17,495 nt of DNA from a virus: the UHGV virus genome UHGV-0117107; one strand, given 5' to 3'. Under the pieces are notes generated by a model that saw only the letters and a list, made by a program, of their open reading frames with translations, was not told the DNA's origin and searched no databases. The position numbers were made by a program, and so were the translations under genes. This document shows positions 10,985 to 17,248 of this stretch, piece after piece; position 1 is the stretch's first letter, and every line of letters starts with the position of its first letter.

Positions 10985-12718
10985 CTATTCAAAAGCATCC
11001 TTGTTCAGTTTATAAGCAACGAACGCATCCATAAGTGCTGCAACGCAGTCAATCTTATGCTCTCGTTTGCGTTTATAAAGTTTTCTGTTACCGTTGGTGT
11101 CTTCAAGGGTGATACAGTTTCCCATAGCAAACGACATGATCTCTTCATCGAATCGAAGCATTCTCTCTTCAGAAAGGTTCTTTAATTCTCCAAGAGGAAT
11201 AGATTCTGTCTTTGCTCCCTGAATTACTTTCTCAATACCAAACGGACCATTCTCGGTTTCCCATCTATTAACAAATTCCTTTGCTCCATACGGGTCAAAG
11301 CCGAAACACCGAACATCGTAATCACTATCGATAATATGTTTATCCAGATCGTCGTAAACTTGCATCATATCGAGGATCGCACCGTCGAGAACTATCAAAC
11401 TACCTTCATTCATAAACTGATCGTATTTCGTCCGCATAGCTGCTGGTAATTTCATCAGAGTTAATGAAGAAATATAGTTTCTAGTCTTAATACCGAACGT
11501 TCCATCCTGTAAAGGGAACATAAATGAGAATGAGCAAAAGTCGTCTCCCTGCGATAAGTCTGCTCCCATAGCACAAGGTAATCCCCAGTAATCTCTACGT
11601 CTATGAGGTATTGTCTCTTCATAAGTAAAGTAATAGGTATAACCTTCCAACGGGATTCCAAATCTTTTCGCAAGAATATCGTTCTTTGCTGCTGGGTTCT
11701 GTTCGGCTCTTTCCACGTCAAGCTGATATGCTTCAGGGCTAACGGTCTTTCCAATATTCGGATTAGCCTTAAGCCACATTTCTGGATTTCCTACTTCCTC
11801 AATATCATCGAGCTTATACCACCAGATTGATACGTGAGGATTAGTGTACTCGTCTCGAAGAATCTTAGATAATTCCATTTTGATTGTGTCGCCGCTACCA
11901 TTTCGTACAGTACCTTCTGAACTGGTTGCCACAATAAGATAATCATCATTTTTTGAGGCACCCTGTTCAACAGCACCAACGACGTCTTCTCGTACATCTC
12001 CTGATAGCCATTCATCTATAGTGGAGATCTTATCTCTTCGTGACTGCAATTTATCGATGGACATTGGTAGAACTTCGATTATTGAATTTGTAAGGAAGTT
12101 CTCTACACCCTTTTTCGTACTAGCTAACTTCTGTCGATTCGCCCTTGAGCCTGTAGTATTCTGTAAAGAGCCCTCTGTTAAGAATTTAAACAAAGGACCT
12201 CTAGCTCTTGCTATAGCTGTACGAATAGGAGCTAATGTTGCTTCTGATTGTCTCATTGTCGGCGCGGTTACTAATTGCTGAGTAGTACTCGTGTCGACAT
12301 TTAAAAAATAAGCCTGAATACATGCCGCATACATCGATTTAGCAGCACCTCTGGCTACGATCAAATACTGTTTGTTAACCAGTCGTTTCTTAATTCTCTT
12401 GGTAACATATCGTCCTTCGTCGTAGTCATAGACTGATCGTTCAACGAAGTAATACCAACCGAAAATCTGTTCCGCCCAAAGTTTAAACGAATCAAGTAAA
12501 TGTAGATCTTCGCCATCAGTTAATGTGAGTTCGTTCTCACAATAATTAATAAAACCCTGGATCGCTTGGTCGTCATACCAAATTCCAGGGTTAGCTATAA
12601 GATCATCTATTCGATTCATCTCCATCGAGATTTCTTTACATATTGGGATTTCTCCTCGCATGACCGCCTCTCTAAAGCGGCCGTAATATTTCGGAACAGC
12701 CGTGTTTGAAAGACTCAT
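10985..12718 (-). CDS. terL: Terminase large subunit
   Basis: 577-aa ORF; ATG preceded by AGGAGAAAAACATC; ATPase-type motifs (LIVARGAAKS Walker A-like, acidic DEWLS), C-terminal nuclease-type region with GFDPYG and KIDCVAALMDAF resembling recalled Terminase_1-family sequences. Confidence 0.9.
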   Translation of the reverse strand: MSLSNTAVPKYYGRFREAVMRGEIPICKEISMEMNRIDDLIANPGIWYDDQAIQGFINYCENELTLTDGEDLHLLDSFKLWAEQIFGWYYFVERSVYDYDEGRYVTKRIKKRLVNKQYLIVARGAAKSMYAACIQAYFLNVDTSTTQQLVTAPTMRQSEATLAPIRTAIARARGPLFKFLTEGSLQNTTGSRANRQKLASTKKGVENFLTNSIIEVLPMSIDKLQSRRDKISTIDEWLSGDVREDVVGAVEQGASKNDDYLIVATSSEGTVRNGSGDTIKMELSKILRDEYTNPHVSIWWYKLDDIEEVGNPEMWLKANPNIGKTVSPEAYQLDVERAEQNPAAKNDILAKRFGIPLEGYTYYFTYEETIPHRRRDYWGLPCAMGADLSQGDDFCSFSFMFPLQDGTFGIKTRNYISSLTLMKLPAAMRTKYDQFMNEGSLIVLDGAILDMMQVYDDLDKHIIDSDYDVRCFGFDPYGAKEFVNRWETENGPFGIEKVIQGAKTESIPLGELKNLSEERMLRFDEEIMSFAMGNCITLEDTNGNRKLYKRKREHKIDCVAALMDAFVAYKLNKDAFE

Positions 12719-12761
12719 GATGTTTTTCTCCTGTTTTATTTTGTGTTCTATTTAGCACACT

Positions 12762-13334
12762 TTAACGACCATAACGAGCATTGTTCAATATTCTTGACAC
12801 ATAGGTTCGTCCAGTCTTTTTGTATGCTTCTTGAGATTCGAGCAACATAGCATCTGCCTTATCAGATAATCTTGAAGCATCTTCGAACATTTTATTATAC
12901 TCCTTAGCATCTGCTGTTTTGTTCTGTGCAGAAGCTATAAATCTTGAAACTGCGTTTTTACCAAGTTTCTTGCGCTGCTCTTTAACCTGATTCCACTTTG
13001 CATCAGCAACATCACTAGCTTTTGATGCTGCATCAACCTTTTTAGAATAATCTTTTACTGCTGATTTTTTGGCATCTACTTTCGCTTTCTTTATGTCGGC
13101 TTTTGCTTCTCTTAAAGAAGCCTTAGCTGCATCTCTTTGGATCTTATTACCTTTTCGAATAGCTCCAATACCGTTCAACTGACCAGAATTCCTAGCTGCT
13201 TTACGAGCTTCTAATCCATCAGCTCTGGCTTTCTTAGAGGCTTGTCTAAAGGTCGGCTGATCGCTTCTCCTTCTAACTCCCCACTTCATGCCTTTTACAC
13301 CGTAGTGCATTAATTTGTCATCATAGTATCCCAT
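12762..13334 (-). CDS. Paralog D of tandem family (190 aa): conserved N-terminal HYGVKGMKWGVRR motif, then a highly basic Lys/Ala-rich helical region; function unknown
   Basis: ATG preceded by GAGGTGAAAATTCAAA. Shares the N-terminal motif with the three upstream genes; rest of the protein is low-complexity and basic (AKADIKKAKVDAKKSAVKDYSKKVDAASKASD...). Confidence 0.7.
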   Translation of the reverse strand: MGYYDDKLMHYGVKGMKWGVRRRSDQPTFRQASKKARADGLEARKAARNSGQLNGIGAIRKGNKIQRDAAKASLREAKADIKKAKVDAKKSAVKDYSKKVDAASKASDVADAKWNQVKEQRKKLGKNAVSRFIASAQNKTADAKEYNKMFEDASRLSDKADAMLLESQEAYKKTGRTYVSRILNNARYGR

Positions 13335-13363
13335 TTTGAATTTTCACCTCTTATCTCAAATAG

Positions 13364-16125: not shown

Positions 16126-16480
16126 TTTGAATTACCTCCTTTCCAGTTTGTTCTGCCTCCACATTAAGTCTCCATTCAAGCTCGTTGATCATCTGTTTCA
16201 TGGCTTCCATTACAGCAGAGCTAAGAGGAGGATCGAAAATAAGTCTAACCTTTAGATACATATAGGTTTTTACAGCCTCGAAGTTTTTGTTATCGGTCGG
16301 AAGAAATTCATCCCATGTAGTAAACTTATCCGTGATATGAAATCCATTACTAGGACCAACTCCCAACTGACTAAGTATCATGAATACAGAATTGATATGC
16401 ATGATGATATCAGAATCAAAGTGCTCATAATCTTCTGTTATACCGAGCATCTTTTTAACTGATGTAAGTATACTTTCCAA
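16115..16480 (-). CDS. Hypothetical protein (121 aa), TTG start; weak resemblance to gp6-like head-tail connector proteins
   Basis: Start codon is TTG (16478-16480) preceded by AAGGAGGTG with ~8-nt spacing; stop overlaps the start of paralog A by 11 nt. N-terminal helix SVKKMLGITEDYEHFDSDIIMHINSV loosely matches the L-R-(V/I)-D-x-D-D...L-I pattern recalled for gp6-like connectors; weak assignment. Confidence 0.45.
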   Translation of the reverse strand: MESILTSVKKMLGITEDYEHFDSDIIMHINSVFMILSQLGVGPSNGFHITDKFTTWDEFLPTDNKNFEAVKTYMYLKVRLIFDPPLSSAVMEAMKQMINELEWRLNVEAEQTGKEVIQNGQ

Positions 16481-16497
16481 TATTCACACCTCCTTCG

Positions 16498-16911
16498 CTA
16501 TCGTTTCCAGGGACAAGTGTCATTTGGTTTTCGTTCTATTGGTTCTGTTATAAGTAAGCTCTCGTCTCCGTAGTGAATAGCGTTGTGGGTATTGAGTGTT
16601 GTAGAAATTACATTCTCTGGATCGAATACTTTCGGATCTCGTAGAAGAACGTCTTCTACTGAAATTGGATTTATATGATGCACGAGGATCTTACCCACTA
16701 TCTCATAACCTTCACAGGCCAAATCACAGCCATTATCTCGAATAATTATTTCGTTACGAAAGCGCTTCCATTCTGTCGTACGATAAAGCATCTGATTTAA
16801 ATATCGATCATAGCCGAATGTCTCAACACCAACTTGTCCGCCGAGTTGTAAGTATCTAAAACGATCTAGAAAAGTTGGAAGCTTAATCAATTCGGAATAT
16901 GTTCTATTCAT
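16498..16911 (-). CDS. HNH endonuclease (packaging-associated type)
   Basis: ORF track gives 16498..16941, but the ATG at 16909-16911 has GGAGG 9 nt upstream whereas 16941 has none, so the shorter start is preferred. Translation contains RDNGCDLACEGYEIVGKILVHHINPIS...NVISTTLNTHNAIH, an HNH-type motif. HNH genes next to terminase genes are established for cos-type HK97-like phages. Confidence 0.7.
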   Translation of the reverse strand: MNRTYSELIKLPTFLDRFRYLQLGGQVGVETFGYDRYLNQMLYRTTEWKRFRNEIIIRDNGCDLACEGYEIVGKILVHHINPISVEDVLLRDPKVFDPENVISTTLNTHNAIHYGDESLLITEPIERKPNDTCPWKR

Positions 16912-17248
16912 CTTCATACTCCTCCGGATCTCCCTGACCATTGTAATTTCTGAAAGCCTTCATAGCGTTCTCAACGAGAACCTTGTATTCTTTCTCATCC
17001 TCTATAGCATTGGTTTTAGCTTCTAACAGTTTATTCTCTTTTTTAAGTTTCTCTTTCTCTAACTCTGCTTTTGTAGTACCAAGTTTCAGAAAATGTGTGA
17101 TGACCTGAGAAGAAGCAGTGCCTTCTATTAACTGCCTTTCAGCTAGGTCCACTGCCAATGAAATCATCTGGTTTTCTCTAGCTTCTGGAGATAAAGCAGG
17201 TCTCATCTTCTTACTTTCTTTCGATGAGCTTTTGCTTAGTTTAGGCAT
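16904..17248 (-). CDS. Putative terminase small subunit / DNA-packaging protein (114 aa); alternatively a late-gene regulator
   Basis: First gene of the minus-strand operon in the window; ATG preceded by GAGGAGGCAGAAAGT; basic N-terminus (MPKLSKSSSKESKK), a central predicted helical segment and a charged coiled-coil-like C-terminal half (AELEKEKLKKENKLLEAKTNAIEDEKEYKVL), which fits small terminase architecture. No family recognised; assignment is by position and composition only. Confidence 0.35.
   Translation of the reverse strand: MPKLSKSSSKESKKMRPALSPEARENQMISLAVDLAERQLIEGTASSQVITHFLKLGTTKAELEKEKLKKENKLLEAKTNAIEDEKEYKVLVENAMKAFRNYNGQGDPEEYEDE

Follow-up and report, generated by a model that had tools for sequence, protein, structure and literature searches.

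Dispersed DNA-packaging genes as the probable normal gene order of a widespread cos-type siphovirus lineage, with DUF7211 proteins encoded between the HNH endonuclease and the large terminase

In the phage genome sequence UHGV-0117107, a stretch of 17,495 nucleotides (nt) hereinafter called the window, the genes for an HNH endonuclease and for S114, a 114-amino acid (aa) protein that is a candidate small terminase subunit (TerS), are separated from the gene for the large terminase subunit (TerL) by a gene for a 121-aa protein and four paralogous genes that encode proteins with the DUF7211 motif. The window represents the left-hand 17.5 kb of a siphovirus of the cos type, from a lineage that unites Lactococcus 1706-like phages, many human-gut phages of Firmicutes and an actinophage supercluster, and the non-adjacency of HNH and TerL is conserved across phyla in this lineage. 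We consider it fairly probable that the dispersed packaging genes reflect the normal gene order of the lineage, that is, an ancestral interleaving of head-assembly and putative cargo genes with the terminase genes, as opposed to a recent insertion.

Gene order in the window and in related phages

All coordinates refer to the whole window; the block from S114 to TerL is encoded on the minus strand and is read from right to left:

16904..17248, minus strand: S114, 114-aa core protein, candidate small terminase or cos-recognition subunit (by position)
16498..16911, minus strand: HNH endonuclease, 137 aa (phrog_4321, HNH endonuclease, E 2.8e-60)
16115..16480, minus strand: head-tail connector or virion structural protein, 121 aa (Pfam Phage_connect_2, PF24829, E 2.2e-42)
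15580..16125, minus strand: p181, 181 aa, DUF7211 (41.7 bits), the lineage-conserved member upstream of TerL
14518..15576, minus strand: p352, 352 aa, DUF7211 (27.1 bits)
13364..14500, minus strand: p378, 378 aa, DUF7211 (40.4 bits), hydrophobic helix at aa 88-106
12762..13334, minus strand: p190, 190 aa, DUF7211 (42.8 bits), lysine-rich, isoelectric point (pI) 10.2, immediately upstream of TerL
10985..12718, minus strand: TerL with ATPase and nuclease domains (phrog_9, E 3e-102; Pfam TerL_nuclease, E 1.7e-31)

The minus strand carries every gene within 6.6-17.3 kb, and the order from the right edge is S114, HNH, the 121-aa gene, the paralogs of 181, 352, 378 and 190 aa, and TerL. The distance between HNH and TerL is 3,779 bp, with five genes in between, and S114 is separated from TerL by six genes; thus, the coordinates and the separation described in the first-pass annotation hold, as do its HNH and TerL assignments, given the profile matches listed above. 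The block is tightly packed, with intergenic distances from -11 to +43 nt, and a scan of positions 10000-17495 for promoters and terminators detected no signal above the shuffled expectation, so the stretch from S114 to TerL looks like a single operon. The overall GC content is 0.391.

The ATG of the HNH gene at position 16911 overlaps the S114 stop codon by 8 nt, and the PHROG alignment begins at the same Met. The HH...N...H motif is readily visible in the HNH protein, which is 51-52% identical to the HNH proteins of actinophages and additionally shows weak similarity to phrog_4581, 'terminase small subunit' (E 0.006), the only such line in the TerS searches. The 121-aa protein matches phrog_4247 (virion structural protein, E 2.6e-52) and is a homolog of ORF6 of phage 1706 and of ReqiPoco6 gp014; a phmmer search with it against PDB found nothing. 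We assign its gene as a conserved core head-tail connector. TerL shares 76% identity with its counterpart in Streptomyces phage ClubPenguin and 59% with the one in Lactococcus phage 1706. That TerL from a phage with 39% GC is closer to a Streptomyces phage than to the Lactococcus phage represents an unusually high conservation across phyla, which fits the account given in bioRxiv 10.1101/842583.

We compared the window with 80 IMG/VR loci whose TerL is 77-80% identical, locating the homologs in each of them. Among the 79 loci that contain all four markers, 78 have the order S114-HNH-connector-TerL. HNH and TerL lie 732-4,242 bp apart (median 1,188 bp) and are never adjacent; the minimum of 732 bp corresponds to the connector and one DUF7211 gene, and the 3,779 bp of the window fall in the upper tail. 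The exceptional contig (L084) has a TerL match upstream of S114-HNH-connector, which could be explained by a rearrangement, a second copy or mis-assembly. In cultured phages of Lactococcus (1706), Rhodococcus (ReqiPoco6 and ReqiPepy6), Gordonia (Secretariat) and Streptomyces (ClubPenguin), the common annotated order is a hypothetical protein of ~116 aa, HNH, the connector or virion structural protein, a variable protein and TerL, followed by further variable proteins, the portal and a protease-capsid fusion. S114, HNH, the connector, the portal and the capsid fusion are each 42-58% identical to their actinophage counterparts, which indicates that they belong to one ancient core; in the comparison with the 1706-like and actinophage module as a whole, the portal and the fusion are 36-56% identical. 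HNH, the connector, TerL, the portal and the protease have been listed as a conserved block (bioRxiv 10.1101/842583). The conserved order combined with the non-adjacency of HNH and TerL implies that the split is the normal architecture of the lineage.

The first-pass annotation started from a contiguous HNH-TerS-TerL module that would later have been split by accessory cargo. The synteny comparison that it proposed reveals largely the same arrangement in the relatives: 78 of the 79 loci and the cultured phages all keep S114-HNH-connector-X-TerL, where X is variable, so a formerly contiguous module is the wrong starting point for this lineage. The suggestion of accessory cargo fared better in part, in that the slot upstream of TerL is indeed variable and is expanded here to four DUF7211 genes; the separation itself, however, is ancestral and includes the core connector.

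The 1706-like phages and the members of the actinophage supercluster (ReqiPepy6/Poco6, Gordonia Deejayvirinae, Streptomyces Bingvirus/BI and several clusters of Arthrobacter, Microbacterium and Curtobacterium phages; 1706 itself is a Fremauxvirus) share with the window the succession of a 1706 ORF4-like protein (S114), HNH, an ORF6-like connector, an ORF7-like DUF7211 protein, TerL, the portal and the protease-capsid fusion, along with a terminal sequence box and a TerL that is 59-76% identical. Unlike these phages, the window contains four separate DUF7211 genes upstream of TerL and none downstream. The actinophages differ from the window in that their lysis cassette (endolysin and holin) is located between HNH and the connector, whereas the endolysin gene of the window lies inside the tail block, and in the fusion of an N-terminal 2H-phosphoesterase domain to the protein encoded upstream of TerL.

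S114, a candidate small terminase subunit

S114 matches phrog_4259, a family with function not known (E 7e-44), and showed no match in Pfam, NCBIfam or the PHROG TerS families. Its homologs are encoded directly upstream of HNH in 228 phage records, in all of which they are annotated as 'hypothetical', and the family comprises more than 7,900 protein clusters, none of them named. The protein is present universally in the lineage, is about as conserved as HNH and the portal, and is 42-54% identical to its actinophage homologs. In the window and in many relatives, S114 is the first gene after the cos end, which in the window is ~250 nt away. Given that it is the first gene after cos, overlaps HNH and is a core gene, S114 is the best candidate for the small terminase, on position only.

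The AlphaFold2 (AF2) model of S114 (confidence score, pLDDT, 71) consists of a disordered basic tail (residues 1-20), a helix (21-42), a turn and a long helix (47-102) that could form a coiled coil; the model is compatible with, and not diagnostic of, a helix-turn-helix (HTH) followed by an oligomerization coiled coil. A Foldseek search of PDB with this model yielded 0 matches, phmmer and profile searches against PDB gave chance coiled-coil matches only, and hhalign against the TerS of HK97 (gp1) returned a probability of 0.4%. When all seven proteins encoded upstream of TerL were compared with Pfam, PHROGs and NCBIfam, as the first-pass annotation had advised, none matched a small-terminase family. 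Its proposal that the 114-aa protein is the small terminase is accordingly retained as the best candidate by position and finds no counterpart in a TerS family match; the alternative it raised, that an intervening gene encodes the real small terminase, is not supported. Altogether, we see a balance that is about even, perhaps tilted slightly in favor, for S114 being a cos-recognition, small-terminase-like partner.

The DUF7211 proteins

The Pfam family DUF7211 (PF23847), for which no function is assigned in Pfam, is a 25-residue profile with a gathering score of 27 bits that all four paralogs of the window reach or exceed. The motif occupies the extreme N-terminus of each protein and has a core that is invariant in the four (L-x-H-x-G-x-K-G-x-K-W-G-x-R-R). 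On the strength of the profile scores and this common core, we regard the paralogy noticed in the first-pass annotation as real and not a chance resemblance. Beyond the motif, p352 and p378 are homologous over ~290 residues (29% identity, E 2e-26). All four proteins are strongly basic (pI 9.7-10.2), and two of them carry hydrophobic helices rich in A, G and S, one of which forms the C-terminus of p181.

The four proteins differ in their distribution. Orthologs of p181 (50-70% identity) are encoded directly after the connector in many gut loci, and the full length of p181 aligns to the C-terminal modules of ReqiPoco6 gp015 (aa 333-497, E 9e-9) and of Secretariat gp12. In contrast, orthologs of p352 were found only in the closest relatives (L005, L012 and L014, at 72-78% identity). 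The AF2 model of p352 is of low confidence over the motif and linker (residues 1-94), with pLDDT below 50 in the motif region, which would fit a peptide that becomes folded upon binding to a partner; the C-terminal alpha/beta domain showed no fold match in PDB or BFVD. The p378 protein shows 29% identity across its entire length with ReqiPoco6 gp021, a protein encoded downstream of TerL; the p378 gene has the lowest GC content (0.341) among the genes examined in 6.6-17.3 kb and no ortholog among the closest relatives, which suggests that it is a recent arrival in the slot upstream of TerL. Finally, p190 is essentially unique, its similarity to other proteins being confined to the motif plus weak matches.

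A hidden Markov model (HMM) of the motif, built from the relative loci, identified DUF7211 in 190 open reading frames (ORFs) of 86 sequences, which group into 92 clusters at 60% identity; only a handful of these ORFs have the motif beyond about the first 30 residues. Of 78 loci, 76 contain at least one DUF7211 gene between the connector and TerL: a single gene is present in 62 of them and two genes in 12, while one locus has three and another, L014, has four. Among the closest relatives, this slot contains two genes in L005, three in L012 and four in L014. Extra copies lie between TerL and the portal in most loci (0-6, with six in ReqiPoco6). As judged from these comparisons, the slot upstream of TerL is conserved, and its content turns over and shifts between the two sides of TerL; we interpret the four paralogs of the window as a DUF7211 expansion of this conserved, fast-changing slot. 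In the TerL-portal interval of the window, a crAss001_48-related gene and a collagen-repeat gene are found where relatives have DUF7211 genes, and the corresponding interval of L005, the closest relative, contains a crAss001_48-like gene and one DUF7211 gene.

In actinophages, the DUF7211 motif heads GNAT acetyltransferase domains and domains of the 'papain-fold toxin glutamine deamidase' family (Gln_amidase); one Secretariat protein contains both, each preceded by its own copy of the motif. In the actinophage proteins encoded upstream of TerL, the motif comes after the N-terminal 2H/LigT phosphoesterase domain. The motif is also internal in ORF7 of phage 1706, which is annotated as a structural protein in the database record; ReqiPoco6 gp020, another DUF7211 member, and the ReqiPoco6 and ReqiPepy6 homologs of 1706 ORF7 bear the same kind of annotation. 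Pfam scans of 90 and 68 DUF7211 proteins detected only DUF7211, GNAT, 2H-phosphoesterase and Gln_amidase domains, and neither MuF/SPP1-gp7 nor LPD domains.

The motif is abundant far beyond these loci. A search of 1.84 billion representative sequences with a profile of the four N-termini from the window (E <= 1e-3) produced matches in at least 36,932 clusters at 50% identity. All 150 top matches listed (P0241-P0390) are polyproteins with 2-5 copies of the motif, at a median spacing of 221 residues, that are up to 1,569 aa long; the only domains that Pfam recognized in these top matches are GNAT and Gln_amidase. Examples of such polyproteins occur at positions 9757-11379 of L002 and 6990-7925 of L071. 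In the polyproteins, an 'HS(D)' dipeptide together with an acidic stretch typically precedes the internal motif copies; the module before an internal copy often ends in an A/G/S-rich hydrophobic helix resembling the C-terminus of p181. At the other extreme, a further motif-profile search retrieved nothing other than motif-only ORFs of 39-79 aa; the one genomic context that was inspected belongs to the same lineage. The putative tag spans ~25-40 aa and has a distinctive HxG[VI]KGxKWG core. Neither DUF7211 nor the KGMKWG motif was mentioned in any paper of the library searched, and a literature search on capsid targeting yielded only general background.

The genome end and the leader hairpin

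Two features were delineated between S114 and the right edge of the window:

17468..17495, minus strand: cos-proximal terminal box TTCAGAAGTTCTCCGGCGGGATTTTTGG, matching nt 1 of cultured relatives
17304..17444, minus strand: long conserved leader hairpin between the cos end and S114, from RNA folding and covariation

The consensus of the box, CCT(A/C)AAAA(A)T(T/A)(T/C)C(T/C)CCGG(N)GGG, is located at nt 1 of Secretariat and ClubPenguin, and a variant at nt 1 of 1706; the window edge TTCAGAAGTTCTCCGGCGGG aligns with nt 1-20 of the former two. In many relatives, the contig terminates 90-360 nt upstream of S114, and in an alignment of 16 leaders, nine independent metagenomic contigs start at one column, CCT(A/T)AAAAA-TTCTCCGG(N)GGG; the box is also denoted CCTAAAAA/TTCTCCGG. 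In L005, L011, L014 and L088, assemblies that run through the site, the box is internal and is preceded by a GC-rich stretch. Because the right edge matches the conserved left end, the window appears to start at a genome or contig terminus and not at an arbitrary cut, and by this alignment we place the physical left end of the genome ~1-2 nt from the edge. In the relatives that span the junction (L005 and L088), the right end encodes a PD-(D/E)XK nuclease, an HTH protein of 937-1,025 aa and a conserved acidic protein of 78-86 aa, the latter immediately before cos.

The leader hairpin has an RNA folding z-score of -3.8. Across 16 sequences, 27 pairs are predicted, with 93% of the cells paired and 23 of the 27 pairs changed on both sides; none of 500 shuffles matched the observed values, slid controls were paired at only 33-48%, and the G-U pairs favor the sense strand. 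The invariant loop of the hairpin, UUUCUCCUUUCAA (at ~17359-17371; also denoted CUCCUUUC), is similar to the anti-Shine-Dalgarno sequence of 16S rRNA and shows complementarity to GAGAGGAGG, the ribosome-binding site of S114 at 17257-17265. The leader matches no Rfam family, giving sub-threshold generic hairpin matches only, and the hairpin is absent from the short leader of ClubPenguin. Its role could be to regulate translation of the late operon or, at the DNA level, to serve as an accessory structure of cos. In one subgroup of relatives, a tRNA-Leu(CAG) gene lies between the leader hairpin and S114 (L027 286-372, L037 234-320, L049 240-326, L060 242-329); the window has no tRNA.

A tentative model and its alternatives

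The order in this lineage runs from the cos end through the leader hairpin, S114, HNH, the connector, at least one DUF7211 gene, TerL and variable genes to the portal and the protease-capsid fusion. In the model that we propose, S114 would act together with HNH and the nuclease of TerL to cut cos, and the DUF7211 motif would be a short tag, for docking or for processing, by which cargo of diverse kinds is loaded into the procapsid and accompanies the DNA. This cargo would comprise basic proteins and membrane-active helices, to which relatives add domains of the acetyltransferase, 2H-phosphoesterase and deamidase-toxin types. By analogy with the known systems discussed below, the role of the motif in loading procapsid cargo is plausible, even if we rate it somewhat short of an even chance; that the four DUF7211 proteins of the window are capsid-associated cargo, and not a hidden small terminase, is probable. 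The compound claim, that DUF7211 is a portable capsid-loading or prohead-processing tag of an abundant unrecognized cargo system and that S114 is a new type of small terminase acting with HNH at the cos box, is tentative, and we rate it as less likely than not.

HNH-dependent cos packaging is reportedly established for HK97-like phages, where gp74 of HK97 functions with gp1 and gp2. The window resembles this system in the cos type, the HK97-type portal, prohead protease and capsid, the HNH gene next to cos and the intact nuclease domain of TerL. In HK97, however, HNH is the last gene, and TerS and TerL are the first two (gp1-gp2, nt 50-2056), whereas in the window the TerS candidate precedes HNH, both being on one side of cos, and TerL is 3.8 kb further in, so the three genes are not contiguous across cos. 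Targeting of cargo to capsids is known from the internal proteins of T4, which have N-terminal capsid-targeting sequences, the polymorphic toxins or 'polyvalent proteins' linked to MuF/SPP1-gp7, and the cargo-loading peptides of encapsulins. The DUF7211 proteins are similar to these systems in combining a short conserved terminal peptide with many unrelated, fast-evolving payloads, including toxin-like and enzyme-like ones, in the location of their genes in the head-assembly region of an HK97-fold capsid system, and in the existence of polyprotein forms. No sequence relationship to these systems was found, the Pfam scans having returned neither MuF nor LPD domains.

Several observations weigh against this model. 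S114 lacks detectable similarity to any TerS family or solved structure and is annotated as 'hypothetical' in every database entry. The assignment of DUF7211 proteins to the virion depends on how a single member, 1706 ORF7, is annotated in its record; neither a protease cleavage site nor a docking partner has been identified for the motif; and the C-terminal domains of the four proteins in the window have no recognizable fold or enzyme signature. With its four genes, the array of the window belongs to the upper tail of the copy-number distribution, indicating that some recent gain has occurred.

This last point is the basis for the view that a recent, moron-like insertion of cargo split a contiguous HNH-TerS-TerL module, which we nevertheless find quite improbable. 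The presence of four DUF7211 genes, as against a single one in 62 of 78 relatives, the low GC content of p378 and its lack of orthologs in the closest relatives, the restriction of p190 to this phage, and the variation from two to four genes in the slots of L005, L012 and L014 would all be compatible with such an event. But HNH and TerL are apart in every relative, in phages of both Firmicutes and Actinobacteria, by no less than 732 bp, and both the connector and p181 belong to the core and have orthologs in actinophages, so only the copy number would be recent, the split being older, and synteny largely refutes the insertion. Less probable still, in our assessment, is that a DUF7211 protein, either of the p181 type or p190, is the true small terminase, with the motif serving as a TerL-binding peptide. 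A gene of this family occupies the classical TerS position between the connector and TerL in nearly all loci, the proteins are small and very basic, and S114 itself has no TerS homology; yet none of the paralogs matches a TerS family in Pfam, PHROGs or NCBIfam, and the multiple copies, found equally downstream of TerL (as are the p378 homologs of ReqiPoco6), the fusions to GNAT, toxin and phosphoesterase domains, the polyproteins with 2-5 motifs, and the hypervariable sequences, as opposed to the highly conserved cos box and TerL, all argue against this role. The annotation of 1706 ORF7 as a virion structural protein points the same way: to our knowledge, small terminases are not virion components.

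Two other explanations concern the halves of the model separately. S114 might not be a terminase subunit at all but a cofactor of HNH, a regulator or an assembly factor, with cos recognized by TerL/HNH alone or by a protein encoded at the right end, which adjoins cos in the concatemer. The lack of TerS homology, the model of a helix plus a long helix with no clear winged-helix fold, and the PD-(D/E)XK nuclease, large HTH protein and conserved 78-86-aa protein encoded before cos would all accommodate this possibility; S114 is, however, universal, coupled to HNH, the first gene after cos in many members and conserved like HNH and the portal, whereas at the right end the small protein is acidic and the HTH protein, at ~1,000 aa, is unlike TerS. 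We consider this explanation unlikely, although it retains appreciable weight. Somewhat more doubtful is the notion that the DUF7211 proteins are never encapsidated and are either scaffold-like or chaperone-like assembly factors or late intracellular effectors. Their genes lie among head-assembly genes, no scaffold gene is annotated in the lineage, and the C-terminal domains of the copies in the window lack an enzyme signature; against this, the expected scaffold-like region would be the linker domain (~130-360) between the protease and the major capsid protein, the variability in copy number and sequence and the fusions to toxins and enzymes are atypical of scaffolds, and 1706 ORF7 is annotated as structural.

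With the ancestral interleaving as the preferred explanation, the result is mostly deflationary: the split module is the standard and already described gene order of a widespread lineage, and the arrangement should neither be taken as a disruption nor be used for re-assigning the small terminase. The lineage is very common in the human gut and in collections of soil actinophages and yet has no recognized small terminase; S114, beside the cos box, is a concrete candidate. The architecture of the DUF7211 proteins, namely a short conserved peptide at the head of variable payloads, fusions to toxins and enzymes, and polyprotein forms, points to virion-delivered effectors, which would be of interest for the biology of anti-defense. 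If the tag is real, a siphovirus lineage that crosses phyla packages, and presumably injects, fast-evolving cargo encoded either as separate genes flanking TerL or as polyproteins of 2-5 modules. In practical terms, the signature S114-HNH-connector-DUF7211-TerL, together with the terminal box, could serve annotation pipelines to orient and delimit the genomes of this lineage.

Other features of the window

The remainder of the window, to the left of TerL, contains the following features:

10035..10895, minus strand: variable slot downstream of TerL, with no DUF7211, holding the 81-aa and 198-aa genes
10650-10895, minus strand: crAss001_48-like protein, 81 aa (Pfam)
10035-10631, minus strand: collagen-repeat (G-X-Y) protein, 198 aa (Pfam)
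8749..10020, minus strand: portal protein (Pfam Phage_portal, E 6.5e-22; NCBIfam portal_HK97)
8439-8774, minus strand: small ORF between the portal and the protease-capsid fusion, with no family match
6654..8399, minus strand: fusion of prohead protease and major capsid protein, HK97 type (Peptidase_S78 N-terminal, Phage_capsid C-terminal)
4824-5237 and 4234-4794: tail-assembly-chaperone genes
2819-4237, minus strand: endolysin (GH25, CHAP and two CW_7 repeats)
2426-2803: Neck1-like gene, followed by the tape measure gene

The ClubPenguin homolog of the protease-capsid fusion is annotated as 'major capsid and protease fusion protein'; the protein encoded in the window has its own linker domain (residues ~130-360) between the protease and capsid parts. 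The tail genes come after this fusion. The possibility that the window represents a truncated or defective element, the tape measure seemingly missing, was considered and rejected: the tape measure ORF starts at 2429 and continues past the left edge, so the window is the ordinary left arm of a siphovirus genome.

The start of the small ORF at 8439-8774 is ambiguous, being either a GTG that overlaps the portal gene by 26 nt or an internal ATG 24 codons downstream. In relatives, the place of this ORF is taken by a longer gene that looks unrelated. The endolysin gene is embedded in the tail block, between the tail-assembly-chaperone genes and the Neck1-like gene.

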